NCBI GenBank assembly: GCA_905178155.1
Contig: CAJINV010000018.1
Coordinates: 1,247,562-1,274,360 of the forward strand
Length of the DNA: 26,799 bases
From: Amoebophrya sp. A120
Taxonomy: Eukaryota; Protista; Dinoflagellata
Direction: 5' to 3'
In this document: in pieces, positions 5,375 to 26,799 of the stretch
Layout: each line of letters starts with the position of its first letter
How positions within the stretch are numbered: the first letter of the stretch is position 1
Notes under the pieces: generated by a model
What the model was told of the DNA's origin: nothing
The model's input: the letters and a program-made list of their open reading frames with translations, nothing else
The model's database searches: none
Translations under genes and position numbers: made by a program

Positions 5375-6443
5375 ATTTTATAACCCGAACCGCCGGCCGG
5401 GGAGGCCGTCGCGGTTTTGTTTCTCTTTTTGGCTGTTGAGTGTCCGCGGAAGCTCCACAACTATGAGCTCAACTTCAAGTAAGATTTTTAGTAAAAAAAA
5501 AAACCCTTCGCGCGACCTGAATCGCGCGAAAAGCAGCTGACAGCTTAACCCGCGGCACCTTGTAGCTCTATCGGTTTTCAAATATAATCATGTTGCATTT
5601 TTCAACTTCCAACTTCGGTTTTATTTTTGTATGATATCTACCAGACATAGTGCGAAACTCGCGTTCTCAGGCTTACAGAGCACCTTCCAGCCAGGTCCTC
5701 GACCACTATAAAAACCTTCTCTTTCGTTTCGTCGCCTCATGTAAGATTTCAGAAAAAGTAATCTAAATCTCGTTTCTACTGCCGCAAGACCTTTTTCATT
5801 TTGTAGAAAAAGTTCCAGAAAAATGAACTACTTCTTCTTTATTTCTCCTTCCTGTTCTCCTCCAGACACGGCGAGAACAGGAGTTTTGTACCTTTCAGAA
5901 CTAATCCAGAAAAATGAAGTTTTCCATGCTGTTTCGCACTTCGTTATCGTTTCTTTGTACTTTTGGCATTGCACTCTTCACATGAGGTTCTCGGTCTTCT
6001 ACATGACTTTGCACTCAGGCACTTTCTCCAATCTGTCATGCTCTTTTGTACAAAACTCTCTAGGTTCGATGTCTTCTAGCAAAAAAATATCGTCGTGTAC
6101 AATTTCAAAAAAAACTCTATCTCCGTGTACAGTTTACACCTTCGTCTGTCGGCATCTCTTCCCGCTAAGGAAGCTAGTTTCGTGGTCACCGTTTCGAGGT
6201 CAACTGTTTTTATCTTGTGGTGATAGGTTTCACCATCTCGTGGTCAATTTTTCGAGGACAAAAAAAAACTAGTATACTGCTATCGAGGACACGGGGTGCA
6301 AGGGCACCAAGTACGAGGACACAAGCAGGTGCCAGGGCACCTATTTCGGGGACACAAAGAAAACGTCTCTTCCGCTCCTGGCCCATACGACAATAGGTTT
6401 ACTACTTTTTCCTTTTTGCTCCAGCGCAAAAAAACTTATTTTT

Positions 6444-6454
6444 GAGAAGGGGGG
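6444..6454 (+). other. Polypurine tract (plus-strand primer) of the copia element
   Basis: GAGAAGGGGGG preceded by a T-run and immediately followed by TGTAAC, the canonical PPT/LTR junction. Confidence 0.8.
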
Positions 6455-6844
6455 TGTAACAATTGTGGTGTTGGTGGGGTGCACACCACCAGCGCCACAA
6501 ACTGTGATGCCTGCGCCTGTAAGTAGATCGTAGATTTTACAGCGTTAAGCCAGTCGCGTCGTACTTAGCCTTCTAGGGTCGTAGTCGTATGCCAGGAGTG
6601 GGGGGAGAGAATCGGAAGGCACAAGAGAGAACTCCGTGTGGTAAGATCGTACTCAGGTCGTAGCTCGTGGATGTCCGCATGCTGGCACACAAGGAAGAAC
6701 TTCATGCACAATGTGACTGCACTGGGGTGCTCTTTAGGTTGGTTCTACTATCTCGAGTTCCGGACGAAGGTCGTCTGGTGGTTCTGCCGCATCTGGGAAG
6801 CGTGTTCCTAGTGCGTTGCTAAGATAGTTCGATGCTATTTAACA
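6455..6844 (+). repeat. Putative 3' LTR (~390 bp)
   Basis: Starts TGT right after the PPT. Candidate end ...TTTAACA at 6844, shortly before the sequence becomes AT-rich. The second LTR is not in the window, so the end and TSD cannot be confirmed. Confidence 0.55.
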
Positions 6845-7159: not shown

Positions 7160-8500
7160 TTAAGCGCTGTCGTCATCTCCTGACTCAGAAAAGGCTGGGG
7201 CTTCCGCCTTTTGTGTAATTTTCTGAAATCGCGAAACGATTGGGCCATGCTCCCCCCCCCCCGAGGCTTGGGCCATCTTATCTTTTAGGGTGGCGATTGG
7301 CCTCCGTCGATCGAGAAGGAGCGCACGCCCCGCCGTGGCTCCCTTTCCATATCCTATCCCATGCGGGAACGGCATGCCTGGCCCGCATGGTGCGCAAACA
7401 CTTACAGCGCGAATTCGCACCAATCGCGTCTCTTATGCGGACGGCTTTGGGCACCTGCGCCGATGAATTGGGTGCGCAAAAGCATAGACGCTGCGCCCTA
7501 TCGTCGCGCTTCATCGGGGCCCGACGCCGGTTCTTCCCGCGCGAGCCGGCGCTGGTTATGCAGTGGCCCGATGGCGCAAAAGGGCCGCGGCGTTGCCGGC
7601 AAGTTCGCCAAGCGACCGCGGGCGGACTTTCGCAGGCGGGGCGGGTAGCCGCGTCGAAAGGTCGCCCGCGCGGGCGCTCCCCGAGGCTGTGCGCTGCTTC
7701 CGCGCCGGATCGTCTCGGGCGAGCGCGATCGGGGCGGGTCCCGGCCGGCGCGGCGGCCCGCGGCGGTTCCCCGCCCCGCGGTTAGAGTTTCCGGAACCCC
7801 GATGCGAGCAAGTCTTTAGCCCCCCGGCGATGCGCCCAGAGCGTGACGCCCGCGGGCGGCTGTGCCTTGCGCCCCCCGCCCCCTCAACAGCACCGCCGCG
7901 CGCGATTGCGCGGGGCGGAGGCAGCTCGTCGGACGGCGTCGCGTTTGCCTCCCCTGGTGCCGCGCCTCTAGGGCGCGGGCCGGCTCGTTTCTTTCCCGCG
8001 CCTTTGCCCGCCGCCGGGCCCGACGAGGCGGCAAGGCCCGGCTTGGCAAGGCACAATCTCGCGCGATGAACTCGGCTACGTCGCACGACAAGGCTACGAG
8101 AGCCGCAGTTTTTCGCGCCGGTGTTCGTTTGCTAGATCGGTCGCGGCCCCGGACGGCCACGCCACCCTTCCCTGCGCCGCGGCAGCCCGAGTTCCTGACT
8201 TGTTTGTTCGTGTTCCTGCTTTGGGCCCAGCTTTGGACAAGCAAACGATCCGGCAATCGAGGGAAAGCCATTTCGTACGTGGCCCACCTATTTTCCAGAT
8301 CCACCTAGAATCGTCAGGTCCAAGGCATCAATGCAGCAGCGCTCGGCCGGATGCGAAATCCTATGGCGCGTCGCTTGTTCATCCTTCCTAGCGGCAGGTT
8401 GCGCTGCGCTAGGGTGAGTGGATAAACGTATGCAGAAAAGTAGTTGACACTCCGCTCGGTGTAGCAAGCCAGCCCACGACCGGGCTGCTACAGTGCTGTT
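7160..8500 (-). pseudogene. Possible highly degenerate copia RT-connection/RNase H relic, very GC-rich
   Basis: Minus-strand peptides in different frames are collinear with copia motifs: KTAALVALSCDVAEFIA (cf. KQxxVALSTAEAEYIA), LAGNAAAL (cf. xxDNxAAI), LCFCAPNSSAQVPKAV (cf. NxADxLTK). Similarity judged by eye and weak. Confidence 0.35.
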
Positions 8501-8631
8501 ATTACCGAGGTTCTTTGCACGGGAGACGGTTCTACTGCGGCCGATAATCGTCGACAATTGCGAAGAGGAAAAAGAAGAGAAATTTGTCCACGTCGATCCC
8601 TCGCTTGTTTTATCACGGCACCCCAACTACG

Positions 8632-10896
8632 ATGACAAGTCCGACAACTTCCACCGCGGTGGAGTCCTCCTCCACCGCAACCGCAAAGGAGCGCCAAGGC
8701 GTGGTGTTTGACCGGTGGCCGTTTCGGCTGGACATCGCCTACGAGTACCAGTGCTGGATTCTCGTCGCGATGTCGGTGTTTTGCGCAACCATCTGCCTCC
8801 TTCCCTGCTTGTGCGGGGTGTTCCGGTCCAAAATTTCCAAGCGGTTCACGGTCTGGGTGTACTCCAGGCTGCACACCTTTTTCTGCGTCTATCAGAAGCA
8901 AAAATCCCCCCTCCCCACATCGAAACGAAATTTCTGATGCTGGATTTGCGTACACAAATCAGATTTGTCTTGCAGTAGAGGACTGCATGCCCATATCATG
9001 CCCATGCACAGAGGGACATCAGGAACGTCTAGGCCGTAGGAACAGCAGCATTACAAACCGCCTGCATAATGGGGCGGAGACTGTGGTGCTGCGTTCTTGC
9101 ATCACAGATGCGATTTGTGGTCACAAATCAGCACGAGAAATTTTTTGAGGCGTGCCTTATCGATATGGGGAGAGGGGATTTTTCCTTACGATAGCGTCGC
9201 CTTCTACTTCAACGTCACGGTGTTGTTCTTCACGGTGGGTCTGCTCCCAGATTGGACGATCAACGAGTACGTGGCGGTATGGGAGAGAAATTTTGCGTTT
9301 TCCTTGTCGCGCGTGGCACTTTTGCCGGTGATGCACTTTCGTACCCAAAGGAGCAGCTGTACTAGTGTGCACATCATTCTTTTTTCAACCGTCGCACAAA
9401 GTCTGACAGCAACCGGCTCCTCTACCGTCATGCAAAGCGTCGAGATCATTCCAGCGCGGCGTGTTGCATAACTTGCCTAAGTATTGTAACCCAAAGAGAA
9501 GGTTGCTGCAACGCGAAGGAAAAATTGGTTTTCATCCCAAGCTATACTCGATATGTTTCGACTTTCTGGATTGGATGTTGATCCACACCGTGAAGTTCCT
9601 GGTCTCTGCGCTGATCCTGCTGGGCCTGTTCATTCTCGTCAGGTCCAACTTCTTGAAGTTGAAAGTTTTCTTTGTGATGCGTAAGTGGTTTGCCAGAGTT
9701 CCTTGTCATGCGGAGCCCCAACAGTAAATGCGCGACAAATTATGCACCACCCAAAATCCTATCAGGTTCAAGGAGCGCATCGCCGCTGCCGCCGGTGTGG
9801 AGCACATGACCTTTTTCCGCCTCGGAAAACTGAACCTCTTCCACACCGCGCAGCTCCGCGGCATCGAGGTGATCATTTGGAAGGTGGAGGAGCTTCCCTC
9901 GGGCACGGGGCTGAAGCCCAACGACGTGTATTTGGAATGCCATGCCGGCCAGAACGAACCGACAAGGACGCGGGTGCACAACAACGCGGGAGCGTATCAA
10001 GAAGAAAAATCCCTCCTCCCCATATCAAAACGGAAATCTGTGTTGCAGATTTGCAGGCACAAATCAGCTTTGTTATGCTAGAAGGGGAAAGACCCGGACT
10101 GTAGTGCTGGGTGGCCTGGGGAAGCCTTGCATCTTCAGCATGGCAGGAAGCAATTGGAAGTGGGAAACAGCATGACAAATTGCCTGCAAACGAGGCCACA
10201 ACTGCGGCTCTTGGCCTCCTAGCATTACAAGTCGATTTGTGTACTCAGATACAGCATCACACATTTTGTTTTCGATATGGGGTGGGGGGATTTTTCCATT
10301 TGATAGAGCCGCGGCGGTGATCAAGGAAACGTTTCAGGTATACTGAAGATAACTACACTGCAACATATTGAAGATAACTATCACTATCCGTTTTATGCAT
10401 TGCAAATATGGATTTGTGATGCGAAATTTCAAGGACAACAAGTACAAGACTTGTATTGCATGAAGATGAGGATGATCATCCCCAGGTCAACATTGACGAG
10501 AACGACGTGGAGGAACGGTTCACACTTTTGGTAAAAGACCAAGAGCTATCCTGTGCAAAAGTATCGTACTCTTATTGCAGTCATGCGCTACAAATCTTTT
10601 TCTTAAGGCAAATCCGCATTACTTCTCATGCTGAGGAAATTTGTAATGCATTTATACGAGTACGATACTTTTGCAATGCATAAGAGCTCCTAGTTTCCTC
10701 CGTGCTGTGCAAGCTCCAGCTGAAAACCAAGGATGTTCTTGCGATTGAGGCGCAGACGGGCAAGGTGAGCGAAGATTTCGTCTACGACGCGAATGCGTTT
10801 TCGCAGCTCCAGCTGCAGCCGCGGGGAAAAATATGGCTGCGGGTAAACCCCTTGGAAGACGGGGAGCAACAGCCGTTGACGAGTGGACTGTGCTGA
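8632..10896 (+). CDS. Membrane protein (about 3 hydrophobic segments) with a C-terminal C2-like domain, ~320 aa
   Basis: Exons 8632-8889, 9199-9276, 9542-9642, 9766-9994, 10311-10337, 10486-10546, 10688-10896 (963 nt, one frame). 3 GT-AG introns and 3 introners. C2-like pattern: IEVIIWKVEELP..PNDVYLECHAGQNEPTRTRVHNNAG..VIKETFQVNI..FTLLVKDQELL..GKIWLRV. Confidence 0.75.
8890..9193. mobile_element. Introner 1 (family A)
   Basis: TIR TATCAGAAGCAAAAATCCCCCCTCCCCACATCGA / TCGATATGGGGAGAGGGGATTTTTCCTTACGATA. DR GCGTC at 8885-8889 and 9194-9198. Removal gives FFCVAFYF. Confidence 0.9.
9995..10305. mobile_element. Introner 2 (family A)
   Basis: Imperfect ~90-bp inverted repeat starting TATCAAGAAGAAAAATCCCTCCTCCCCATATC. 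DR GAGCG/GAGCC. Removal gives NNAGAAAVIKE. Confidence 0.9.
10547..10682. mobile_element. Introner 3 (family B)
   Basis: TATCCTGTGCAAAAGTATCGTACTC ... GAGTACGATACTTTTGCAATGCATA. DR AGAGC/AGAGC. Closely similar to 15651-15795. Confidence 0.92.
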
Positions 10897-11505
10897 TTCC
10901 ACGATTTCCGCTCACGACTGCTGAAATTTACCAAGACGGGTGAGGTGATTGTTAGCCCGCGAAGGTCGAAGACGATGCGTTAATGTGCAGCTGTTGAAGC
11001 AGGTGCCTAGAAATGCATCTTGGACGTTGTTGCTCGTGGCTCTTCTCTTCTTGGTTTTTGTCTTTATCGTCTTGTTCTTCACGACCCTCGTGCGGCTGCA
11101 AAGGTAGGCCGCCGACGGCGCTTACTAGGAAAAGCAACTGCAGGAATCAACTTCGACGGTTGGTTGTGACAGCACCCTTTCATTGCCAAGACTTGGCTTA
11201 TCCTAGAAGATCACCCAGAAAACGGACGAGATTAAGTTGTGCAAAATTTGTTTTCTCGATCTGCAATTTTTCTCATTTCCACACAGGTGTCTGGTTTGTT
11301 TCACAGCGACATTAGCTTTTAACACGTCGCATACGCGACGCGTGTCGTTGCTATATTCACTTGTAGTCGCGATTTCAGTTTCAACATTCGGCACGTCATT
11401 TTTCAGATCTGTCTGAACAATTTAGAATCTTCTTGCTGGTTCTTTTTTACTCATACTTGGTAAAATTTTCATTAATTTTGTGGACGTTACAAGTAGACTG
11501 ACATC

Positions 11506-14500
11506 ATGTCGCGTCATTTGCTCTTTGAAACAACGTCAACCGCTCTGGAGCGGTCGCGACCCTCGCTTCCGCGGCTGAGAATAGGCGGGAAAAACACCAG
11601 TGCCGGGGCACTACCGTCTGTCTCCCCTGCAAACAAGCCGCAGAAAGCGGGTCTACCGGCGCCCCTGCTGACCGGCTCTTACACCTTCGGTGGCAGCAGC
11701 AGCTCAACTGCACCTACTTGGGGAAGGCGAGGATTCTCAAGTCATTCTGTTGGGAAAGGGTCCTGCGTTGCAGCGGAGACGCCAAATTTCTTTTCTCCCC
11801 AAACCATGAAGCCGCGACCAAATACCGGGCTGTCTCATCTGCCACAAAGCAACCATGCGTGGCGAGGGCGGGCCGAGTGGGAGGAGCCAGCAAGTAGACA
11901 CAGAGCTTACAGCACCAAGAGCACAGCATCGCAAGGTTTGTTCGACAGGAGGCAAGGGCTGCTGCGGGGAGCGGCGAATTTTTGTGGTCCGAGAAGTAGA
12001 CTGGGAGCAGGACGAGGACTCTTCACGAAAAACAGCTTCTCCTCATCCCCAATACGAAATACATTAAGCTCCCACCAGCAGCACCACCCGCCCCACAACA
12101 ACCTTCTGCTGCCTCGAGTCCGCACCATGATCATGATCCGCGAGACAGAGAACGGAGAGAGCAAGGATCCAAAAAAGAAACAGAAAACCTCCACCATCCG
12201 CACGCTAAAGTCCGTGCTCAAGTACGCGTGGCCGTCGGGCGACCCGAAACTGCAGTCCCGCCTGGTCGGCAGCATGGCGTGCTTGGTGCTCGGGAAAGCC
12301 GCAACCATTCTGGCGCCGCTGGCACTCGGAGACTTGGTGAACAGCCTAACCGTATGCATTGCAAATATGTTTGGGTCTGGAAGGTTGGAACTTGTAATGC
12401 TATCTTTCCATACCTAGGAAATCTGTATTGCATAACCAACATAAGCCGCGGCCTCTTTTGTACATGCAAAAACGCAGTTTCTCATGCGGATTGCCTATGA
12501 GAAAGCGTTCTGGAAAGTTGTCATGCTGGGTTGCATTGGAAACTGTTTCTATCATCCACATTTTTGCATCAGAAGTTTCCAGACCCAGACATTTTTGCAC
12601 TTGATAGACCGCCGTGCGAGCGAGTCCGGGCGCGTCGGACGCAGCCGCCGAGCAGCTCGCGGAGACCTTCTCCCGGACGGCGTCCACCCCGGGTCTGGGC
12701 GATTTGCTCACCGCCACCACGGACAGCACCAACGTGCTCCTCGCCACCCCGGAGATGGTCCCGTTGCTCTGGCTGGCGTCGTACGGGCTCGCGCGGTTGG
12801 GGGCCAGCGGGTTCTCCGAGCTCCGGACCTACCTGTTCGCGCGGGTGGTGCAGAAAGGGTGCCGCAAGCAGGCGCTGAACGTCTTCAACCACCTGCACAC
12901 CCTCGATGTCGAGTACCTCCAGGCGCTGAAGTCCGGCGAGATCCAAGCCATCATGAATCGCGCGCTGAAGTCCATGCAGCAGGTTCTCACGACGCTGTTG
13001 TGGAACGTGGCGCCAACTTTACTGGAATTCGCTTTTGTGCTCGCGATCGTGTACAATCAGATGGGGTTGTACTCGAGCGGCATTGTGTTTGCGACCTTCT
13101 GCAGTTACTTCGGTTTCACGACGGTATCAAATGCAAAAATGTCTGGGTCTCCTCTGGAAGAATGCAAGTTTGTCATGCTTGTCTGGCATGACTCGAGAAT
13201 CTGTGTTGCATAGGCACGAAAGAGACCTCTTAACTGTCACGCGAAAAGGCAGCTTGCCATGCGGAATACGTAAGACATGGCAGCCACAAAATTTGTCATG
13301 TATAACTGCGTACTGCGGCGCGTCTATCATTCACTTTTAGCATTACAAGTTTCCAGACCCAGACATCTTTGCATTTCATAGACGGCCTACAGCAACAAGC
13401 GGCGGGAGTACATGAAAGAATCGAATAAACGCGACGACCGGCTCGCGGGGCAGCTGGTGGACTCGGTCCTGAATTGCGAAGCGGTGCGGCACTTTTCCGC
13501 GGCGAAGCGGGAGGCCAGGCGGTACGACCGACAGTTAGCGAAATACGAGGAGAGCCAGGTACTAGGGGAGTCAGTGCACGATCCTGTGAAAATGTCTTTA
13601 CTTGATCAATCTTCATGCATAACTCGCCACAGGAGTGTGGTTATCGTCATGCTGTTTATAATCTTGAGTTTCGAATACCAATCCAACCTCTACTTGATGT
13701 GGTACTGCAGTCCCCCCGGCATGGTGAGAAGTTCCAATTTAATCACTGTCAGGTGCAAGTCCTGCAATCCCTCGCCACTTTGAATATCAAATGCAAAAAT
13801 GTCTGGATCTGGAAACATGGAACTTGTAATGCTAGCCCTACATTCCTGTAAGATCTGTATTGCATGACCAACAAAGAAAACGCCCTGTTTTGTCACGCGC
13901 ATGGCAAAGTGTTCGGCAAACTTGTCATGCTTGGCTGCCTTGGGAAGTGTTTCAGTCGTGCACAGTTCAGCATCACAAGTTTCCAGACCCAGACATTTTT
14001 ACAGTTGATATGGAACTTTGGGCAGCAACTGGTGATCAACACCGGCCTCCTTTCCATCATGGCACTGGCCACCTTCATATGCATTGCAAATATCCCTGGA
14101 TGTCCGGAAAATATGGAATTTGTGATGCTAACTTTCGAGGATACAAAAACCTGTATTGCTTTATGAGCAGCAGAAGCTATGCAGACCTTTGCCAACCGGA
14201 CAGGGCTGCATTTCTCATGCCGGATAGGCATGAGCAAGCCTTCGCGAAGACGAAACCTGTGATGCTAGAGCATGCATCAGTGGCATCGCAGGTCTTGTAA
14301 AATCTGCATGACAGACTCCCCGAATTATCTTCCAGACGTCCAGGCAGATAATTTTCAGTTGATACTTCAACGTGCTCAACGGTTCCGTCCCCGTCGGGGA
14401 CGTCGTTGCGGTGAACACGCTGATGCTGCAGCTCGCGCAACCGTTAAACTTCCTCGGCGGCGCGTACCGAATTACTCTGCAGGGGGTGTTGGACTTGCAG

Positions 14501-15867
14501 CGGCTGGAGCAGTTTTTGACCGACCAAAAAGGGTCCTTGCCCGAGGGGGAAAAAGATTTTCAGTACGCTGGCGGGAAAATCGAATTTGAGAACATCGATT
14601 TCCGTGCGCTGAGGGATTTCAACTTGAAGATTCCCGCGGGAGCAAAAGTTGGGATCGTCGGGCCGTCCGGGAGCGGGAAATCCACCATTCTGAAGTTGTT
14701 GGCGCGGACCGCGAAGCCGGAGAAGGGCCGCACGTTGGTGGACGATCAAGATCTGATGGACGTCACGCAGGACAGTTACGCCAGCGAGATCGGCATCGTT
14801 CCCCAGGAGTCGATTCTGTTCAACGACACGCTGCGGTTCAACTTGGAGTACGCGGCGTTGGCGGACAGTAAAGCAGCGCTAGATGATGATGATGTTGACA
14901 CATCGACAAGTACGGACGTAAAACTCGCTCTCACCGACGAGGAAGCGGAGCAGCAAAGGGTCAAACTCCAGCAGCAAATGGAGAACGCCTGCAAGCTCGC
15001 GCAGGTCCACGACGTCATCGAGAAGTTTCCGGACCAGTACGAAACGGTCGTCGGCGAACGGGGGTCGAGGCTGTCCGGCGGGGAGCGCCAGCGGATCAGC
15101 ATTGCGCGCACGTTGCTCCGCGATCCAAAAATTTTGCTGTTCGACGAGGCCACGGCGTCTTTAGATTTGGAAACGGAGGACAAGCTGACGCGGGCGATCC
15201 ACGATTTGATCTCGAACAGCAGCAACAAAACCATGCTGATCGTCGCGCATCGGCTATCCACGGTGAAGCAGTGCGATTTTCTGCTTTACATCGACGGCGG
15301 GAAGGTCGCGGAAATGGGCAGTATCCTAATTAAAAACGTCCCCACACCAGAGTCACGATGGGAAATCTGCTAGACAAATCAGCCAGCTTTGGTTGTCTGG
15401 CATGACAAGTTTGCCCTCGTAGTGTAATGCTGTTTAGCTAGTTCACAAGCATTACAGACCTAGCATAGCATGCAGCTTATAGCATCACAAATTCCAAAAC
15501 ACGAATAGAAAATGCTTCTCATAGGGCTCCGCATGAGAAGCTTTTTTGGCATGCAGAATTGCATTACAGCTCTGGGGTGGGGAAGTTTTTACTCAGAATA
15601 GGCAGCCACGAGGAATTACTGAAAAAGGAAAACGGGTTGTATCGGAAGCTTATCCTGTGCAAAAGTATCGTACTCGTATTGCAATCATGCATTACAAATC
15701 CTGTTCTTAAGGCAAATTAGCATTACAAATTCAACTTCTCATGCGGAGGAAATTTGTAATGCATTTATACGAGTACGATGCTTTTGCAATTCATAAAGCT
15801 GTGGGCGACCTACCAGAGAGGGGTGGGGATAGGGAATAACAACAACGCCGGGAACAAGAAGAGTTGA
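11506..15867 (+). CDS. ATM1: Mitochondrial ABC half-transporter, ATM1/ABCB7 family, ~896 aa
   Basis: Exons 11506-12352, 12612-13124, 13386-13558, 13753-13784, 14016-14077, 14370-15321, 15606-15650, 15801-15867 (2691 nt). TMD motifs DSVLNCEAV, SLATLNFGQ, QPLNFLG; Walker A GPSGSGKST; signature LSGGERQR; Walker B LLFDEATASLD; AHRLST. Long Ser/Arg-rich N-terminal extension consistent with a targeting peptide. Confidence 0.9.
12353..12606. mobile_element. Introner 4 (family C)
   Basis: TATGCATTGCAAATATGTTTGGGTCTGGAA ... TTCCAGACCCAGACATTTTTGCACTTGATA. DR AACCG/GACCG. Confidence 0.9.
13125..13380. mobile_element. Introner 5 (family C)
   Basis: TATCAAATGCAAAAATGTCTGGGTCT ... AGACCCAGACATCTTTGCATTTCATA. 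DR GACGG/GACGG. Confidence 0.92.
13785..14010. mobile_element. Introner 6 (family C)
   Basis: TATCAAATGCAAAAATGTCTGGATCTGGAAAC ... GTTTCCAGACCCAGACATTTTTACAGTTGATA. DR TTGAA/TGGAA. Removal restores conserved SLATLNFGQ. Confidence 0.9.
14078..14364. mobile_element. Introner 7 (family C variant)
   Basis: TATGCATTGCAAATATCCCTGGATGTCCGGAA ... TTCCAGACGTCCAGGCAGATAATTTTCAGTTGATA. DR CTTCA/CTTCA. Confidence 0.88.
15322..15600. mobile_element. Introner 8 (family D)
   Basis: TATCCTAATTAAAAACGTCCCCACACCAGAG ... CTCTGGGGTGGGGAAGTTTTTACTCAGAATA. DR GGCAG/GGCAG. Removal gives EMGSHEELL. Confidence 0.92.
15651..15795. mobile_element. Introner 9 (family B)
   Basis: TATCCTGTGCAAAAGTATCGTACTCGTAT ... ATACGAGTACGATGCTTTTGCAATTCATA. 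DR AAGCT/AAGCT. Removal gives GLYRKLW. Confidence 0.92.
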
Positions 15868-16654
15868 TTGCAATCTGCTTTCTTATATGCAAAAGATTTT
15901 TCCATGCAGAGATGCGCAGAAACTTTTACTTTTGTGTTGCACCCGAAGAAACAAAGATGAAGCAAGAAACATACACAATCAAAAAACTCGTGTTGGCCCA
16001 ACATCCCGCTGCGCCACAACGCTTCTATTTCCGCAGCTGTAGCCCAGTACATGGAGCAACGGCGTGACATGAAACAGTGTTCTTGAATGCTAGCCGCACC
16101 TGCAACTACCTGAAAGAACAACGGCCACCTTGCCATGAAGCAAAAGTGATATCCAGTGTAAAAAATCGAGCACGCCAAAATAAGGATAAACGTGAGAACA
16201 ATTTTCCAAACGCAGATGCAAAAAATTATTTTACAAACACTTCGCCGCCAGAACACAGAGAGAAGACAGATAACATCTCTTCGTGTTATATCATCTTCAG
16301 TTGTAGTTCTCCTGGTTCTCTGACAGCGACGTTTCCTGATATGTAGTAATTACGATGACTTCTAAAACACGATGTTGTGAATATGAAGATAGCGACGTGC
16401 TAGACCCAGTGCAGCTACTATAGTAGATTTATTTCAAGACGGAAACGGGGTGTATTCTTGTTTTCGTTTATTCCTCCAAATATCTTCGTGCTCTGCCTAG
16501 ATCTAGACGAGAACAGCAGTCGAACTGTGTTTACTTACTAGAAGACGAGTGAGAACAACATCTTCAAGAAGCGTTGAATAGATTAAGAGCGACTTCTGAA
16601 CCACAGCGTCTTCACTTCTGTAAAGTCACTTCTTTATCAGTCTTGGGTAAGTAT

Positions 16655-19600
16655 ATGGGCAACATTTTTTCCTCTTCCCCAGTAAAAACCGAAAGCGACA
16701 CAACAACACCCAGTACTAAAGCGACGAGCACGAGTAACAAGCGAAGAGCCTCTCTTAGTACTAGCGAAGAGAGCCCATCTAGCAAGAAAACCAACATGCC
16801 GTCCGCAAAAAACTCGGTAAAGAAGCCCGCCGGGAAGCAGCTCACGGCCGCTGAGCTTGGCGAAAAGTATGTGGGGACGGGGAAGCCGGGAGGTATAGTT
16901 TAGTTGTTCATTGCGGGCGCCGGACGGCAAGAATCTTGAAGCGGTTTGATGTGTAAAAAATGCGTTTCTATAGTCGTGGCGGGGATTTAGAAGTTTAAGT
17001 TGTAAGATTAAGATTCCAAAATCAAAAAATACCACAAGGTGCCAAGGATCCCAACCCAGCGAGATGGGAAGACCACAAGCAGCATCCCTTCTCATCCGGG
17101 CTGTGCATAGCAACGTTACTGGACGGGAGCAAGTGCCAGAAGACCTGGGCGGAAGCGTACGTCCCCTACTGCAAGCCGTGCATGGAGAAGGGCGACCCGT
17201 CGGCAAAGGTAATAACGCACGAGCGGTTTGGCAAGTGCCTCGTCGCGCAAAGGGATCTGCTATCAAATGCAAATGTGTCTGTGTGGTCTGGAAATAGAGC
17301 GATATTCATATTTGTCATCTCGCGGTTTATTTCGCATGACCAGTAGGGTCTGGTACTTAATAGTATGCACGCCTACGAGCATGACAGGTTCTGCGAGGGC
17401 TGCTTCCCAATGCCTTGAGCTCGCCTTCTTTCCGCGCGAGCAAAAGCGGCTAGCTTGTGCTGTTCATGGAAGACAGATCTCACCGTCTTCCTGAGCTAGC
17501 ATGACGAATTTGCCGCTCTTTTCCAGACCCAGACAAATTTTGCACTGCATATCTGCCGAAGGGGTACAAAATGGCCTTGTTCGGAAAGGTTTACGAAGAG
17601 GAAAACATGCCGGAGGCGGACAAAGAGTGGGGCTTCGAGTGCTCGGACGGCACGTAAAATTTCTATTACGCCACGGCATTTTCCTACTTTTTTCTGCTTG
17701 ATGTTTCTTTGTCATGCAGCAGCGCTATATATAGAAGGACGCGGTAGTACCATCATCAGTACGCGGAAGTTTTTTTGTCACACTGCTCGTCATCTTCACG
17801 GCTGTAAGAACAAGAAAAAACTCGAAAAATAAAACCTCTCAGGTTCATCAACCCGGTGAAGTACAGCGGCAGCCTCCCCCAGTTCTGCCAGTGCCCCGGC
17901 CCCAACGAAAAAGTCACCGTCACCTTTGCTCAGCCGCACTTGCTAATGGAGGCAGTGTATCGATTGCAAAGCAATAGCGTTAGATTCGTACTCGGACATA
18001 ATTGCAAAAATGGTGCGTGACAGGTGTAATAGTATGTAGCTGTGGGCGATGCAGCTCGTCAGCACGAGAAATTTGAATTTCATTTATCAGCATTCATTCT
18101 GGATGAGAAATTTGTGTCGTTATGCGAAAGCGAATAGTACGATATTTTTGCAATGCATACCTTGGAGAGGCACGAAGACCGCGAGTATCCCTACGCGTCA
18201 ATGGTACTAATGGTGGTGCTCACTTGATGTTTCAAGAGTTGCATCATGTGTACACAAGAAAGACAAAATAGAGGTATACAGTTGTCATTCGTAGCAATCA
18301 TGTTCGTGGTCCATATCAAGATTTCCAATCCGAATTTACATCGAAACAGCTCTATCAAATGCAAATATGTCTGGGTCTGGAAACTTGTGTTGTTGATAGA
18401 TGCTTGCATTGCAAACTTGCTGCGTGTAGGTGTACGGCATAACAGCATCAGAAATTTCCTTCGGAGCCATTCGCGTTTAGCATTACAAACTGCCATCCAG
18501 CACGACAAAAAAACCGGCCAATGGTATTCATTCATTACAGATCTTGTTGTCCTTGAAGTCCTGCGTCACAAATCCAGACCCAGACATGCTTGCAATGCAT
18601 AAGCTCTTCCAAACGACGATGCCTGTGCCGAAGAATCACCAGCTGGTGATGATGTACGCGGAAATATCCTGTGTAAAAGCATACCACCCGACGCCATTAT
18701 TTGTCATGCAAATCGGCATGCCCAGCATTGAGTCGAATGTGAATGTGTCTGCTCATGCGCAGCCCCATGAGGAGCATATTATAATAATTCTACCTGGCAA
18801 GAACGGATTGCTTTTACTCAGGATAGGAAAACGAAAAAGCTACCGAGGTCTTCTTTTCCGAGCGCGGAATCAGCAGGTGTGACGTCTGGCAGAAGTATGG
18901 ATTGCAAATATCGACTTGGGTCGTTGCGGAGAATGCGAAAAAAACTTGTGATGCTCTCTGTAGAAGCTCACGTTCTTTTGCATGAGTAGAAGCAGTGCCG
19001 TCCCAGGAGTTTCTGCGACGCAGTGATGGGTGTGTTTTGTAATGCAAGATAGTAAGCATTGCAAATTCTTGCCAGAATCTGTGCTACAAGTAGTCCACGA
19101 CCACGCATTTTGTGCAGACCTTTCGGGGCATGGAAAACCTGCATCACAAGTATCTGCATTCTTTGAGAGGACCCAGACTGCGTATTTGCAATGCATAACA
19201 AGAATGCCCCGACGATATTGAAGAAGTGCGCGCCCGCGGACCCGAAGAATTTGAAGCTGACGGGCAAGCCCATCAGCAAGGCGGAGAAGGACAAGAAGGT
19301 GAAGGCGTGTATGGAAGCGTCAGGTTTGAAATCGACAAAGTTGAAATGATTTGTCATGCATAAAATGGATACCAGTTGGAAGCCCAATTTTCAAGCGGCA
19401 CATGACAAATTTTCGGAGCACCGAAAGCCAATTTGTCATGCTGTTTGGGCATAAAAGGCGTCTTTTGTCATGCTACTTTAGCAGCTCTATCACAGACCCC
19501 AAACAGGCTGACAATCTGCCTCGCTTGCCATCCCTGCAAGAGAGACAATTCACGCCTTGCATTTCATGCATGACAAATCCTTTCAACTTTGACGATTTCA

Positions 19601-19827
19601 ATCCTGACAGATCCATAGCGTGGGAGCTCCACGAAAAGCAGAAGATGAAGTCGGCAGCCGAAAAGGAGAACATGACGAAGCAGAAACTGAAAATGAGCAG
19701 CAACGCCACCGCGATGAGTAAGATGAAGGAGGTGAAGAAGAAGAACGGCAAGGACAAGTCCGGCAAGAGTACGGGTAGCATGAAGTCCACGGCGACCAGC
19801 TCGAAGGCTGCGATGAAGAAAAAGTAG
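16655..19827 (+). CDS. Divergent SET-domain-like protein with upstream Cys4 motif and Lys-rich tail, ~382 aa
   Basis: Exons 16655-16892, 17039-17260, 17557-17653, 17843-17957, 18165-18203, 18604-18664, 18831-18895, 19203-19309, 19623-19827 (1149 nt). SET-like segments: FGKCLVAQRDLPKGYKMALFG, FINPVKYSGSLPQFCQCPGPN, LFQTTMPVPKNHQLVMMY. The start codon and the 17957/18165 junction are uncertain. Confidence 0.7.
17261..17551. mobile_element. Introner 10 (family C)
   Basis: TATCAAATGCAAATGTGTCTGTGTGGTCTGGAAA ... TTTCCAGACCCAGACAAATTTTGCACTGCATA. DR TCTGC/TCTGC. Confidence 0.9.
17958..18159. mobile_element. Introner 11 (degenerate, family B-like)
   Basis: TATCGATTGCAAA ... AGTACGATATTTTTGCAATGCATA. 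DR eroded (CAGTG/CCTTG). Confidence 0.7.
18353..18601. mobile_element. Introner 12 (family C), inserted at an intron acceptor site
   Basis: TATCAAATGCAAATATGTCTGGGTCTGGA ... TCCAGACCCAGACATGCTTGCAATGCATA. DR AGCTC/AGCTC. Confidence 0.9.
18665..18825. mobile_element. Introner 13 (short, family D-like)
   Basis: TATCCTGTGTAAAAGCA ... TGCTTTTACTCAGGATA. DR GGAAA/GGAAA. Confidence 0.88.
18896..19197. mobile_element. Introner 14 (family C variant)
   Basis: TATGGATTGCAAATATCGACTTGGGTC ... GACCCAGACTGCGTATTTGCAATGCATA. DR AGAAG/ACAAG. Confidence 0.85.
19310..19617. mobile_element. Introner 15 (family E)
   Basis: ~58-bp imperfect TIR TATGGAAGCGTCAGGTTTGAAATCGACAAAGTTGAAATGATTTGTCATGCAT... DR GCGTG/GCGTG. 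Confidence 0.92.
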
Positions 19828-21128
19828 GATGAGAATCGATGCGATTAGATATCCAGGTGCAGGAGGAGATACAAGTACAGTCACCTGCTCGACGTCTCGT
19901 CCTCGTCAGGATGATCCGTTTACTTCACCAGTACACGTCTTTTTACCCTGCTGTTGTTTCATCGAATGTTGACACAAAGTCTGTTCTTTCGATGGCAACT
20001 ATGCTTTAAAGGTGTTTTTTACGACGCAACAATTGGGGAAGAAAAAACTTTGTTCTTGACTGCGCGCCGGGGAAGAAATGAATAAGTAGAATGCAGCACT
20101 ACAATTATTACCTTTACTGTGGATGAAACACTCTACGATCCAGGGTTGTTGTTCTCAAGGTACTGTAATACAAAAACACGACCTCCGTTTGGAAGATAAA
20201 CGAGAGGTGTCACAGCTTCCACTGGAACCTTTGTGATAATTTCGATTCCACCTACGATTGTAGAACTTCTACCCTCTGCTCGAAGATGGCACAGGGATGT
20301 CTAGATTTTTTTGGTTTTTACTTACGACCCCCTGGGAGTTGATTTCAATCTTTTATCTTTTGCAGCTACACGCTAAAAGAAAACCAAAACTTTGCTTTTG
20401 ACGCTGTGTTTTTTTTTTGCATGAAAAGCGACAACTACAAGGTAAGTACAATACTAATGAAAAGAATCGGAGTTTTCCTCTACCATCACTTGGACGCGTT
20501 TCAATCTGACACCGCGAGCGGGTTTGGATGAGTAAAAAATAGTGTTCGACTGTGTGTTGTGATGTCCTGCTTTTATCGCCACTTTTTTTTGATGGATAGC
20601 GCCTCGGATGTTTTTTATTTGATGGTTTTCACTCGTCACGACCTGGAGCGTACTTATATGGCTTGAACTGAAGATCGATAAAAATGTGTTTTTCTTTTTT
20701 GTGAAAGAGACGGGCTTTTTTTTTGTTTCGCGAGGATCATCCCTTTGTCGCATCCGCTCGTAGTTGTTGGTTTTCTTCTTTTTTCCTTGCTTTTAGTTTT
20801 TTCCACTATTCTGTTTTCGCTGCAGGAAGAGTTAAGTGGTTTTGCGACCAGGTCGTGGTCCCTTGACCACGTGACGTGTAAAAATAGCTTTCAAAACGAC
20901 GTATCAGTCGCACCTCGATCGCTGCTCTTGCTGCGTTTGCGCAAATGGTATTGATTCTTTGACACAGCTCATGCCGACTTTTCCTTCGCAAAAAATGTTA
21001 ATCTCCAATATCCCTAGCCTTGTAGAGGGCCCACGATGTAGTTCCGTGGAATTCTAGTTTGCTTTGAATCCTCGTAAGAAGCAAGAAGTTTTTACAGCGT
21101 GGGTTCCTGCTTCCTATAGCTCGATACC

Positions 21129-23161
21129 ATGTCCGCGAACCAGGGCGCGCGGTCGCGGCTCGGCGCGTCTCTCCGGGCCATGACCGGCGGGGGTCAGAAG
21201 GCCGCGTCGAGTTCAGCCGCGGGGAGTAGTGATCATGCCGCGAAGGAGGTCGAGATTGTGAAATTGGTGCCACCGCAGCGACTGGAAGATCTCTACCAGT
21301 ACGATGTAAAATTGTACGACGCAGGTATAAAAATGATGATATTTTGGTGTGACAGTGACTCAGGTCATCATCCTTGTCATGATGCAGTGGAGGAACCAAC
21401 TACAAGCATGACAAGCATTCTCTCTCAATGCCCTCCCGCATGACAAATTCCTTAGGTGACCGCAGCAAAGTTTTCGCGGCCAAAGAGCGGGCGACGGGCA
21501 AGGACGTGATCGTGAAAATCAGGAAGATATGCACGGCAAATATCTCTGGGTCTGGAAAGATTCACCTGATTTGTGTTGCTGAGTTTTGCATGAAAGAGCG
21601 ATGTTCTGCACGGTATAAACGCATCACAAATTTTCCGTCCGGTATTGCGAGCTCCACCGCGGTGTGCATGACAAACTGAGATTCACTGCATGACAAGAAG
21701 TTGGCCAATCGCATTGATGTATTACAGATCTCGTTGGGTTTTCAATTTTGCATCACAAATTCAGACCCAGACAGGTTTGTAATGCATAAAAGAAAGGTTT
21801 CTTTTCCGGCGGGGAACGGGTCTGGCGGTCGGTGCTGACGAGGATGATGAACATATGCAGTGCAAAAGTATCGTACTCGTATCAATACATCACAAATTTT
21901 ATTCTCAGCATGAAAAATAAAATTTGTAATGCTGATCTACCTCAAGAAAAAGATTTGTAATGCATGACTGCAATCAGTACGAGTGCGATGCTTTTGCACA
22001 GCATAGAACATTGAGGAGAACGAAAATGTTCTAGGGATTGACACCATTCTAGAGGACGACAAAGGTATTGTCATTAACATTAAGTCTTGAAAATGATATA
22101 ATACGAGTCTTTTCACATGCACTTTCGCGAAGCTTGCTTGCATGTCTTTGTCCGACCGATGCCGATGCTATTGGAACAAGTCGAGTGCTAGTATACTTGC
22201 ATCAAAGAAGGAGTGTCAGTTTTATGTTTATCATGCACACAACGCACTAAAATGATTATTCCCAGCCTACTACGTGATCATGCAGAAGTGCGGCGGCGGC
22301 GAGCTTTTCGACTTCCTCTTAAACGAGACAGACGTCCCGGAGCGGGAGTGTAAACGGATCATGCGGGAAATCCTGAAAGCGGTGGACCACCTGCACAGCA
22401 AGGGGTTGATCCACCGCGATATCAAACCGGAAAACGTTTTGTTTGAGAAGGCAAAGGAGGAGCAACAGTCCCCGGAAGAGCAGCGGAAGTTGAAATTGAT
22501 CGATTTTGACACCTGTGCATTGCAAAAGTATCGTATTCTAGGATGAATTGCATCACAAATTTTCTGAAGAAGAAATATGCAACTTGTCATGCTACTTCGG
22601 GTAGAAAGTCGAATTTGTCATGCAATTGCCCTACGAGTGCGATACTTTTGCAGTGGATAACCACTGCCAGGACTGGACACCGAAATCGCCGAAGGCGCAA
22701 AGAATCGTCGGGACACCGGGGTACATCGCGCCGGAGAGCTTTCGCGGGGACTACACGCCAAGTAGCGATCTGTGGTCCGTGGGCGTGATTCTGTACATTC
22801 TGATGACAGGGGACATGCCGTTTCCGGAAGACGTATCTTAGACGATTCTGTTGTGTGTTTTGTGATTGTGACGCATGATTGTCCACTCGTGCTGTGGTCC
22901 TGTTCGATGCAAATTTTCACTGCTTAAAAATAATGAACACAGGTGTTCGGCGACGATATTGCGGGCAACAATCAGGTCGGCGGCGCAAAAATGGAGCAGA
23001 TCTACAAGCGGCTGAAAACTTTCCAGATTGACTTCGACTGCCCGCCGTGGCCGGATTTCCCGCAGGCCCGGGACCTGTGCTCCCAGTTGCTGGCGTTTGA
23101 CCCGGGTGACCGGAGCCCGAGTGCCGCGGACGCACTGCAGCATCCGTGGCTGAAGGAATGA
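21129..23161 (+). CDS. Ser/Thr protein kinase, CAMK/CDPK-like catalytic domain, ~338 aa
   Basis: Exons 21129-21324, 21456-21527, 21794-21853, 22011-22064, 22266-22513, 22665-22832, 22943-23161 (1017 nt). Motifs [47 protein letters not shown]. Confidence 0.92.
21528..21788. mobile_element. Introner 16 (family C)
   Basis: TATGCACGGCAAATATCTCTGGGTCTG ... CAGACCCAGACAGGTTTGTAATGCATA. DR GAAGA/AAAGA. Confidence 0.88.
21854..22005. mobile_element. Introner 17 (family B, inverted relative to introners 3 and 9)
   Basis: TATGCAGTGCAAAAGTATCGTACTCGTA ... TACGAGTGCGATGCTTTTGCACAGCATA. DR GAACA/GAACA. Confidence 0.92.
22514..22659. mobile_element. Introner 18 (family B, degenerate ends)
   Basis: TGTGCATTGCAAAAGTATCGTATTC ... 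GAGTGCGATACTTTTGCAGTGGATA. Flanks ACACC/ACCAC. Removing 22514-22664 gives [14 protein letters not shown]. Confidence 0.8.
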
Positions 23162-24678
23162 TAACGAATGTTGTACGTCGTAAATATCAAGATTATGATC
23201 TGTTTCACCAGTGATAAAGCAGTAAGTAGTAGAGTGTAAATGTAAAATTCGAAGACAAGAACGATTTCAAGCATAGTATCTCGATGGACGAAAAAGACAA
23301 CGAGTACAACTGTTCCATGTTGTGCTATCACGAAGAAGAATGAAACTTAGGAATGTGCAAGATTAGGAAACAAAAATGATCTTGTTTGAGGAATAGCTTT
23401 GCTACCTCAAAGTGTAAAAAGAGAAAGTGAACACGTATTGTTATCATGGAGAAAGCAAACGCGCCGCGTCCAGCACCGACGGCCGTAGCGCTGCGGCGCT
23501 TACCAGATGCGATTGCGAGACCTGCAATCTGCTGTTCTTCCAACATTTTTCTTTCACCGAAAGCGGCTGAGTGGGGCAGAAGAAATCGAGGCGCGAGCAA
23601 GATCCTGCCGCGAAAAAGTAAAAGCTGCGCGCTGCGGGGCGAGGGTGCACTCGTGACACCCTCTTTATGGCTAGCGCGCGGAGTGCCTGAGGTTCTGGCG
23701 TAATTGAGTGTCAGCACGACCACGTGGCGATGCAAGCTGCCGCTAGAGCGACGGAGGGAAAACTGTAACTGTTACTGTGTGAGGGAGGGGCATCTCCTGA
23801 CATTTCATGCACAGCATCATGTCGATCCTCTAATGAACTTAGTGCTCTAGAAAAAACTACAAATAATGGCACACAAGCTTTAATTCAATATTCGACCGAG
23901 TTCTTCTTTGCTAAAACACATCAAAGACAGAAAATATAGTCCGTGTTGCGGAGGTCTCTCGCTGTTCTTGAAGCTGCAGCTGTTTCTGTCTTCTGCCGAC
24001 CCTGGGAGAGGAAGCTGCTAGCTTTTCCACCGACCAGCCTCTGTGCCTTTTTTTTTTGCAGCGAAGCTTGTACCCGGCGGTAGATCAGGAAGTTGAACTG
24101 AGACGGCTTGCTTTCGCGGAAACAGCAAGCAAATCACCGGAGTCCATCCAGATCTACGAGATACACAGGTGGCTTTCTCCCGAAGATTTTCTGTGTGGCC
24201 CTGCAGAAAAATTTTCAGGCCGGTTCGCGGTCAATAATTCGAGGCAAGCTTCGAACATTCCGGGTTTGGTTCTCTTTGCCACGTTGACCCACGAGGTGGA
24301 GAATAAAGAACGTGACCGCGCCCAGCTCGTACCATCCTAACAACTGGCGACGGTGGTGGTCATTATCATCTTCGCGTCTCGACGTGGACGACATTGTCAG
24401 CAGTGCGGGGAGGTGGGAAGAAAACCAGAGAACAACGGGAGAAAAACAGCCACAGCGGCTCCTCTTGCAAGACCGAATTATTTTTCGCTGGATCAACATT
24501 GTCATTGACGAGTGCTGACGTGGCGTAGGTAGCCCCGCGGCCGTACGGTGCAGAGCTGTAACCCACTCTGGTACAACTGTGCATGTGGATGTTCTTGTAA
24601 CACCACCAGGACCACCAGCTCTTCAACGCAAGATAGAAGGTATAAACCGCGAGCTGGTTCTTGTGCACGACGAACACC

Positions 24679-26596
24679 ATGGACGATTTGGGCGCAGAGC
24701 AGCACAGCGACAAGCCGTATGACGAGGCAATCGAGGTGTCCGGCGACGACGCCAGCACGCCAACGTCATCGCCACGACAAAAACCACTCTACGATGTGCC
24801 GTCGCACGCATCACCCAGTCCGAAGGGGAAGCCGGAGGTAAAAAAGAGGGATGCTGCGTACTTGACAACCTGGATTTTGGATCGACTTCTATGCGGTGCA
24901 GCAGCATGTGTGAATTAAGGCATGGCAGGAATGTTTGAACTTAACAAAAAAAAATACTTTTTATCCCCTCACAGCCCCTCGAAACCGCCGTCAAGGCGTC
25001 ATCCCCGGGAACGAAATCAACACCGAAATCGAGCCCTGGGAAGTCAAGTCCCGGGAAGTCAGCAAGTCCGAAACCGGCAAAGAGTCCCGGGAAGGTATGT
25101 ATTGGGACGTTTGCATGACAAGTTTTTTGTGTGAAAATTTTTGTTTCTCATGCTGATTTGCCCACTGCGATTGCTTTTGTCATGCCATTCTGGATAATGA
25201 AACAGGAATCTTCTTCTTCCGATGCCACTAGTACGAGTTCTAGCGATGACGACGAAGGAATGATTATCCTGAGTAAAAACGTACCCACACCATAGTTGTC
25301 ATGCAAATCTGCATGCTGAGAATGTTTCTCATGCGGAGCCCCATGAGAAGCATTTTCTAGTCGTGTTTTGCAATTTGTCATGCTCCAATCAGCATGATAT
25401 GCTAGATCTGTGATGCTGCTGAGCTAGCTCAAACAGCACTACACTACGAATCCAAATTTGTCATGCAAAACAGCCAAAACTTGTGGATTTGTCTAGCCGA
25501 TTCCCCATCTTGACTATGGTGTGGGTACGTTTTTACTCAGGATAATGATAGCCGGGCAGTATAACCCCGCAGACTACGCAAATTTGAAGGTAAGGATTAC
25601 GATTAACTCCATCTTTGTCAGTACGCATGACATGTTTTTGTTTCTCATGCAGCACTCCTTACTCGTTCTCACCTCAGAGAAGATGAAAAAAGAACAACAA
25701 AAACAGGTCTCCCCCGAAGTCTCCGAGCTGTTTCAGTACATCACGAGGTATAAGCCCCACGCCATAGAATTAGATACGAAACTGAAAGCCTTCATACCCG
25801 ACTTCATACCGGCGATAGGCGAAGTGGACGCGATGATAAAAATTCCGCGCCCCGACAACAAGCCGGACGGGCTCGGGCTCACGCGGGTGGACGAGCCGTG
25901 CTTGAACCCCGCGGACCCGGCGGTTTTGGAGCTGCAACTGCGGTCCATATCGAAACACCAGAACCTAACCCCGATAGAAGTCCGGAGTGTCCGAACCGAC
26001 GCCGAGATAAAACAGTGGGTGAACAGAATAGGAGACCTGCACCGGATATGCATTACAAATATGTCTGGCTCTGGAAGATTGCCAGATTTGTCATGCTTGT
26101 CTGACATGACTCGGACCTCTGTCATGCGTAGGTGCAAAAAGATCGTTTTGTCTGTCAGGCAAAAGCGCAGTCTGCGATGCGGACTACGCTACACATAGCA
26201 CCTCAAAAACTTGTCATGCTTGGCCACGTATGACAGAGCGCCCAGTATTCCCTGGTTTGCATCACAAGTGTCCAGACCCAGACATATTTGCATTTGATAT
26301 CGGAGCAAGCCGGCGACGGCGGTAGTAACTTCGTCACAACATGAAGGAAGATGCATCAGGCGATAGATCTGAGGGTTTTTCGTTTCTGAATTTTTGTGAT
26401 GCGCAAAACAGGATACTCATACTTTACCTTCTCATAACATCAACCACAGGTGCAATACAGCAAGAAGATGCCGGATATAGAGACGCTGATGCAGGTGTGG
26501 CCTGCAGAAATGGAAAGTTATCTGGAGCAGAACTTACCATCATTGCAACTGGCAGCGTTGGACCACAAATCGCTGAGCTTGAAGGACTACATCAAG
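24679..26596 (+). CDS. IFT46: Intraflagellar transport protein 46 (3' end lies beyond the window)
   Basis: Exons 24679-24837, 24975-25094, 25206-25264, 25550-25589, 25707-26046, 26305-26321, 26450-26596. Recognisable IFT46 core: YNPADYANLKVSPEVSELFQYITRYKP..LKAFIPDFIPAIGEVDAMIKIPRPD..LGLTRVDEP..MPDIETLMQVWP. Confidence 0.92.
25265..25544. mobile_element. Introner 19 (family D, inverted relative to introner 8)
   Basis: Perfect 32-bp TIR TATCCTGAGTAAAAACGTACCCACACCATAGT. DR ATGAT/ATGAT. Confidence 0.95.
26047..26299. mobile_element. Introner 20 (family C)
   Basis: TATGCATTACAAATATGTCTGGCTCTGGA ... TCCAGACCCAGACATATTTGCATTTGATA. DR CCGGA/TCGGA. Removal gives DLHRSKPATA. Confidence 0.92.
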
Positions 26597-26672
26597 GTAC
26601 TGGAGGAACGATTGCGATAACATGTTTAAGAAGTAAGTACATGATTTTTATTGACGAACATGTTTAATGATC

Positions 26673-26795
26673 TGGTAACCAAATGCGTGCGCGCGCGCGC
26701 GCAGAGCGCGCGCCGGCCCACGAAGCCGGCGCGCGCGCTCTGCGCGCTTGCGATATTGCTTAGCAAACGCAGCGCGAAGGCAGTTGCCGTTACCA
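26673..26795. repeat. GC-rich foldback inside an IFT46 intron
   Basis: Arms 26697-26717 and 26725-26747 are reverse complements apart from a 2-nt bulge. Outer inverted repeat TGGTAAC (26673-26679) / GTTACCA (26789-26795). Confidence 0.7.
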
Positions 26796-26799
26796 TATA

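Follow-up and report, generated by a model that had tools for sequence, protein, structure and literature searches.

Introner elements of Amoebophrya sp. A120: a likely fixed cut register without GT-AG selection, and a possible role for a remodelled spliceosome

More than 60% of the introns of the dinoflagellate Amoebophrya sp. A120 were reported to be non-canonical, and 29,850 introner elements were counted (Farhat et al. 2021; PMC7789003). These elements were described as about 250 nt long, with repeats of the form TAT + 7 bases + AAA, direct repeats of 3–5 nt and RNA-seq support. According to the same paper, the splice sites vary and the position of the border is unknown; an alternate mechanism was suggested. 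It also found the layout of inverted and direct repeats in 15% of the canonical introns. Elsewhere, the A120 introners were assigned to several transposon types, including terminal inverted repeat (TIR) elements with integrase-like open reading frames (ORFs) (PMC12130899). Here we analysed a window of 26,799 nt (contig CAJINV010000018.1, positions 1,247,562 to 1,274,360), in which scanning and reading by eye found 21 elements of 136–311 bp (E1 to E21, all on the plus strand) in five co-oriented host genes. Judged from their sequence, the elements are an instance of the introners of Farhat et al., and the phenomenon is already known in A120. The present analysis adds that the cut register is likely fixed and that, by measurement, the junctions are not under GT/AG selection.

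All 21 elements ended in ATA, and 20 began with TAT; E19 began with TGT. TAT was present at 41 of the 42 element ends, and A occupied positions 11–13 in 19–21 of the 21 elements per end. The flanking 5-mers, the direct repeats (DRs), were perfect in 12 elements and had one mismatch in six, so that 18/21 matched in at least 4/5 positions. In the three others the DRs were eroded (two with 3/5 matches and one with 2/5). Sliding the junction through the DR never produced GT-AG (0/21). GC-AG was possible only at element 15322 and GA-AG only at element 18665, and the element with the DR CTTCA (E8) had no G at either boundary.

Most of this had been described in an earlier note made from the sequence alone. 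Its length range, its termini and its statements on sliding the junction held for the full set. All of its 20 inserts were present, and one more, at 9278–9546 (DR GGCGG/CTCGA), had been missed. Its numbers of perfect and one-mismatch DRs stood, while the eroded ones rose from two to three.

The elements were beyond chance. A window scan at a lax threshold gave 16 matches, versus 0–4 in 20 block shuffles, and related metagenome loci gave 361 element matches versus 2 on the reversed sequence. Full-length identity was 83% between E9 and E20, 86% between E4 and E10, and 81% between E10 and E18. Relatives of the window elements in the metagenome loci were 70–82% identical.

Transcript evidence came from contigs of a sequencing run, X1, which was taken to be RNA by guess only, aligned to window positions 7500–26799. 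The results refer to 15 contig joints among those listed; there were 27 further joints beyond these. A contig of 1653 nt covered gene 1 (8294–11257), and its exon pieces summed to 1653. Another of 2170 nt covered gene 3 (16302–20486), with exon pieces that summed to 2161, plus 9 A at the end. The listed pieces of both contigs had no letters differing from the genome. The two contigs skipped nine elements, each by the element length plus exactly 5, together with five GT-AG introns.

The skipped elements of gene 1 were E1 (8890–9193; DR GCGTC/GCGTC; skip 309), E2 (9278–9546, with a decayed TIR; skip 274), E3 (9995–10305; DR GAGCG/GAGCC; skip 316) and E4 (10547–10682; DR AGAGC; skip 141). Under the register proposed below, which all intron ends given here assume, the first three introns would span 8889–9197 (CT-GT), 9277–9550 (GT-CG) and 9994–10309 (GT-GC), and E4 would have the ends CT-AG. 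Those of gene 3 were E11 (17261–17551; DR TCTGC; putative ends CT-TG; skip 296), E12 (17958–18159; CAGTG/CCTTG; GT-TT; 207), E14 (18665–18825; GGAAA; AT-AA; 166), E15 (18896–19197; AGAAG/ACAAG; GT-AA; 307) and E16 (19310–19617; GCGTG; GT-GT; 313).

E13 (18353–18601; DR AGCTC) was lost inside a 400-nt GT..AG intron, 18204–18603, at its acceptor. Because its right DR supplies the AG of that intron, E13 is no evidence for non-canonical removal. Direct removal evidence thus covered 9 of the 21 elements and two of the five genes (genes 1 and 3) among the joints listed. To this extent it bore out the earlier claim that all inserts are non-GT-AG introns in five genes, from which E13 departs. The check proposed with that claim was whether mRNAs retain the inserts or use nearby GT-AG sites; the nine were skipped exactly. 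The ordinary GT-AG introns said to occur in the same genes were seen in the five that the contigs skipped.

Removal in the remaining three genes was supported indirectly, by piece boundaries, bin depth and protein identity. The ABC transporter gene carried E5 (12353–12606; DR AACCG/GACCG; putative ends GT-CC), E6 (13125–13380; GACGG; GT-CG), E7 (13785–14010; TTGAA/TGGAA; AT-GA), E8 (14078–14364; CTTCA; AT-TC), E9 (15322–15600; GGCAG; GT-CA) and E10 (15651–15795; AAGCT; TT-GC). Contig piece limits fell exactly at the DRs of E8 and E9, one piece beginning at 14365 and one stopping at 15316. The fraction of transporter-stretch words present in runs X1–X4 was 0.46–0.50, close to the 0.51 estimated by hand for exons alone. 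None of the runs that contained the stretch was catalogued as RNA. The kinase gene carried E17 (21528–21788; GAAGA/AAAGA; AT-AG), E18 (21854–22005; GAACA; AT-AC) and E19 (22514–22659; ACACC/ACCAC; CT-CA). The bin depth at 22312–22955 was 6.69, versus 6.6 expected for a spliced contig. The IFT46 gene carried E20 (25265–25544; ATGAT, with a perfect TIR; TT-GA) and E21 (26047–26299; CCGGA/TCGGA; AT-GG). The raw-read RNA runs of 2026 (X8–X10) gave matches at element ends only and none at exons.

In-silico removal of each element plus 5 bases, together with the GT-AG introns, gave products identical to the A120 proteins P0002 (338 aa; kinase gene) and P0124 (896 aa; ABC transporter gene). With the nine skips, this supported exact removal of an insert plus one DR copy. 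The identity indicated that the public A120 annotation already treats the inserts as introns. The elements carry stops in most reading frames, and the host genes therefore need their removal.

The position of the cut was expressed as k, the count of left-DR bases kept. There are six possible registers, and k is informative only where the two DR copies differ; the 12 perfect DRs of the window carry no register information. The X1 contigs allowed k = 2–4 for E2, k ≤ 4 for E3, k = 3–5 for E12 and k = 2–5 for E15. In E7, a conserved Leu (4/4 relatives aligned) requires k ≥ 2. In E19, the residue at the junction is Thr if k is 4 or 5, Asn if 3 and His if less. Among 120 homologs this site was Thr in 109, Ser in 7 and Asn or His in none (4 unparsed), so that the conserved Thr requires k ≥ 4. 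A seventh case was an element in the metagenome locus L016, where only k = 4 or 5 gives Lys and reproduces the A120 protein. This site is Lys in three Amoebophrya proteins and in 31 of 58 parsed sequences (of 87 matches), with no Asn or His.

The sole value shared by these seven informative DRs (six in the window plus L016) was k = 4. Accordingly the intron would read N-TAT...ATA-NNNN, and the cut likely falls at one fixed register, 1 base before TAT and 4 bases after ATA. This register also fits Table S4 of PMC7789003, in which the nine commonest non-canonical classes of A120 are all NT-NN and those of strain A25, whose repeats start with TTA, are all TT-NN. Searches of the literature outside subscription journals returned no work that settles the cut position or the machinery, and Figs 3 and S19–S25 of PMC7789003 may bear on the register. 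As a separate observation, all five G/C mismatches at DR position 5 had the G on the intron side, a small and post hoc count.

At k = 4, all elements give U at +2, A (once G) at +3 and U at +4. A U at +2 with a purine at +3 was found in 21/21 window elements under k = 4 only, and T at +2 with A at +3 arises in only this one of the six registers. The canonical donors of the window were GTA in 12/13 and GTAT in 6/13, and those of L016 were GTA in 4/4 resolved. The putative N-UAU donor matches these GUA(U) donors except at +1, and therefore points to one altered spliceosome.

A larger sample was provided by A120-like metagenome elements, of which 235 of 361 were analysed; the other 126 were excluded because their flanks were short or their strand or frame was ambiguous. 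Strand calls were consistent with the rest of the locus in 120/136 checks. Among 193 elements with a full-length relative, 100 had the same orientation and 93 the opposite. Within the window, E9 belongs to the E20 family in opposite orientation, and E18 likewise to the E4/E10 family. Because both orientations occur about equally, the removal signal must sit in the symmetric ends.

The ends were predicted to pair with each other in 21/21 window elements (15–28 expected pairs), versus 0–10 pairs in the 13 canonical introns. The folding z was ≤ −3.3 in 18/21. E2 (z −0.1) and E12 (z −0.9) had no overall folding signal and kept the predicted terminal stem, and both were removed in the transcripts. 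The pairing probability of the TAT:ATA tips was only 0.04–0.36 in E2, E4, E5 and E11, and the tips of E8 were unpaired with longer flanks. On these predictions, removal is hairpin-guided. The earlier note had proposed a structure-guided second removal system. The role of structure agreed with the pairing of ends in all 21; a second system alongside splicing did not follow from the data.

We lean, with modest confidence, to the following interpretation. The elements would be non-autonomous hairpin DNA transposons, lost from transcripts with one DR copy, and a remodelled spliceosome would cut them out, always in the same register. A transposase would insert the TAT...ATA element in either orientation and duplicate 5 bases. 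The transcript loses exactly the element plus 5, as seen for nine elements. Given a single register and the seven informative DRs, the intron would start with the base that precedes TAT and end with the fourth base past ATA (N-UAU...AUA-NNNN). The element end itself would provide U+2, A+3 and U+4, as in the GUA(U) donors of A120. The terminal stem would join the two ends, and the 3' cut would be set by distance, not by AG. Catalysis would be by the U2/U5/U6 core, with the checks on G+1, G−1 and A−2 relaxed, U1 having gone undetected in this lineage.

The spliceosome is favoured because U+2/A+3 falls at the junction in two independently invaded genomes, because the spliceosome of A120 is near-complete without U1, and because there is a precedent in Fritillaria. 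Nearly all spliceosomal proteins and U2, U4, U5 and U6 were reported for A120, and U1 was not detected in that survey (PMC7789003). According to a second paper, U1 is missing only in strains with such introns and is kept by a GT-AG relative (PMC12005148).

Several points weigh against this interpretation. In the 235 elements at k = 4, there was no excess of G at +1 (73 versus 74.2 expected) or of AG at −2/−1 (18 versus 20.1), G-G pairs of intron ends numbered 17 versus 22 expected, and GT-AG occurred in only 6/235, at chance level. The yeast P-complex docks the 3' site via these same end bases (bioRxiv 212811). No branch-site motif was found, the shared GCATNAC being the sole candidate examined. 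It was rejected, with 6 sense and 8 antisense copies in the canonical introns, no strand or position bias and no clustering at 3' ends. In one family, TAT was no better conserved (284–285 of 288 copies) than TIR positions 6, 8 and 9 (279–287). The stem would sequester the donor. The U+2/A+3 match could be a one-in-six coincidence, TA..TA being an ordinary transposon end. As to the register, the six window cases would share some value by chance with P = 0.069 (the seventh case is not in the calculation), and the k ≥ 4 side comes from protein conservation, not from reads. The coding-likelihood polarity of 56 DR mismatches favoured no clear direction, and the placements in Table S4 of PMC7789003 may reflect the aligners used.

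Since +1, −2 and −1 are unconstrained, a second system stays alive as an explanation. It would be a separate, non-spliceosomal excision, by an endonuclease and ligase or another ribonucleoprotein, with both cuts placed by their distance from the terminal stem, as has been proposed for the nonconventional introns of Euglena. We regard this as a serious possibility with less than an even chance. It agrees with the fully unconstrained junction bases of the 235 elements, with the near-equal orientations (100 versus 93 of 193) and with the predicted end pairing of all 21 window elements. The stem offset here is 3, versus 2–3 in the tested rule of Euglena (3 bases before and 5–6 after the paired motif; PMC12501133). 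On the other hand, the register falls exactly on U+2/A+3 in A120 and, by Table S4, in the independently invaded A25. Hybrid GT- and -AG classes top that table, and hybrids are rare in Euglena (PMC12501133). The start of the downstream exon had no purine preference (A68 C48 G70 T49, versus A61 C58 G74 T41 expected), which also argues against a system of the Euglena kind. We know of no candidate enzyme, and this counts against it. In its strongest form, to which we give the same less than even chance, tens of thousands of A120 introns would be removed by a dedicated hairpin-measuring machine that has no relation to the spliceosome and arose convergently with that of Euglena. It would read N/UAU...AUA-NNNN/, with the first and the last two bases of the intron free. 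If so, any insertion of these transposons would be harmless in either orientation.

It is improbable that the register varies, each element being cut at whatever DR position the machinery favours, as depicted by Farhat et al. (PMC7789003). The 12 uninformative perfect DRs and the P value given above for a common fit of six cases leave room for this; the seven informative cases fit one value, and every one of the Table S4 classes reads NT-NN. Template-switching artefacts classically arise where a hairpin lies between direct repeats. Reverse-transcriptase switching of this kind, or excision at the DNA level, is very improbable here: the evidence consists of assembled contigs from one run, yet the skips were exact even where just 2 bases fit both sides (E2 and E12), the same contigs also lacked GT-AG introns and one had an A tail, and the genes encode intact conserved proteins that require removal (a kinase exon is 87% identical to the A25 ortholog).

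The transposon origin, which the earlier note had also claimed, was supported. In the related loci, where elements were found without a repeat criterion, the 5-bp DR was perfect in 202/268 and a 6-bp DR in 0/268. This confirmed a target-site duplication (TSD) of 5 bp, and the families were repeated. The loci (L001–L135) belong to an A120-like genome found in a public metagenome assembly. They contained the same element families, in which the closest copies were up to 96% identical. A protein of this strain was 99–100% identical to that of A120 over most exons. Of the 59 long ORFs listed, 12 were scanned, and none contained a transposase domain. In L061, a stretch of 2459 bp (476–2934) had the same TIRs, a perfect TTCCT duplication and a minus-strand frame of 415 codons with no Pfam or Atlas match. 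This stretch could be a cargo-carrying element or represent a nested insertion. A match in a viral contig (L136) lay in an AT-rich ORF and was dismissed as a chance occurrence of the motif.

Other biases were seen around the insertion sites. In 111/235 elements the DR began in one codon phase, and the excess was symmetric under strand reversal. C was found 43 times (58 expected) at the fifth DR base, on the intron side, and 75 times (58 expected) at the second. These biases may reflect a target-site preference.

Traces of elements were also seen in canonical introns. A cut-off left end lay at 10394–10442, inside the GT-AG intron 10338–10485. The GT-AG introns, 1881 nt in all, contained 25 occurrences of the element-interior 7-mers GCATGAC, CATGACA and ATGACAA, which overlap (8/13 introns, e.g. 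21325–21455, 25095–25205, 9643–9765 and 17654–17842). Intergenic DNA (5363 nt) contained 3, and shuffles gave 0.7. These 7-mers were absent from four canonical introns of L016. Part of the GT-AG introns may be old converted elements.

All five host genes lie on the plus strand. Gene 1 (8632–10896), with four elements and two GT-AG introns, encodes an unnamed protein with no Pfam match in the two exons scanned. Gene 2 (11506–15867) encodes an ABC half-transporter of 896 aa with a Pfam ABC transporter domain, named ATM1 in the earlier note. Gene 3 (16655–19827) encodes an unnamed protein of 382 aa. Gene 4 (21129–23161) encodes a protein kinase of 338 aa with a Pfam kinase domain. Gene 5 (24679–26596, read as far as the next intron) encodes IFT46 (PF12317). 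One exon each of the kinase and the ABC transporter was 100% identical to a protein named Amoebophrya sp. A120. By these identities, the DNA is that of A120 itself or of a near-identical strain, a closer link to the published introners than the earlier note had claimed for Amoebophrya (PMC7789003).

Elsewhere in the window, an open frame of 1711 codons (239–5374) contained RVT_2, a Copia-type reverse transcriptase domain, and was followed on its 3' side by a purine tract and then TGT at about 6443–6460. No elements were inserted there, and the region is likely a long terminal repeat retrotransposon. Upstream of gene 1, positions 7500–8200 were very GC-rich (76% at 7501–8000), and at the window end, within 26688–26750, there was a GC-repeat palindrome. 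No Rfam families were found within the window.

With a fixed register, the border described as variable and unknown becomes a code that can be tested and that names exact nucleotides, and gene finders would be able to place about 30,000 junctions. Either outcome would be notable: a spliceosome blind to G+1, A−2 and G−1, or a second nuclear intron-removal machine.

Compared with the introners of PMC7789003, there was no difference in kind: the organism, the repeat ends, the DRs and the mixing of both intron types within genes were the same. The difference lies in the border, described there as variable or unknown; here the eroded DRs point to a single register, with junctions free of GT/AG selection. 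U2-type introns follow the rule of a GT (GC, GA) donor and an AG acceptor. The elements do not, and 0/21 can be GT-AG. The introners of Polarella, Symbiodinium and Aureococcus are, like those of A120, transposons with TIRs and TSDs that turned into introns, with splice sites partly recruited from the TSD (bioRxiv 2020.10.14.339549; PMC9860276). In Polarella class 12, the donor consists of the last TSD base and the first element base. As described, these introners have genuine GY/GA and AG sites, either their own or recruited, which the A120 elements lack. The TA..TA termini of IS3EU/GingerRoot transposons resemble those of the A120 elements, and their TSD is usually 6 bp, versus 5 bp here (PMC10045372).

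In Fritillaria borealis, introns have abandoned GT-AG on a large scale in connection with transposons, and a modified U2 spliceosome was held responsible (PMC13326754). Its intron ends are still constrained (AG-AC, AG-AT) and U1 is conserved, whereas A120 has unconstrained ends and no detected U1. The nonconventional introns of Euglena (PMC12501133, PMC11282704) and of hemistasiid diplonemids (PMC12621601) have common ends like those of miniature inverted-repeat transposable elements and a stem that joins the ends. They also share with the A120 elements the fixed spacers and the lack of GT-AG, and circular excision products were reported in Euglena. The codes differ: that of Euglena is N3-CDG...CH'G-N5-6 followed by a purine, and that of A120 would be N1-TAT...ATA-N4 without a purine preference.

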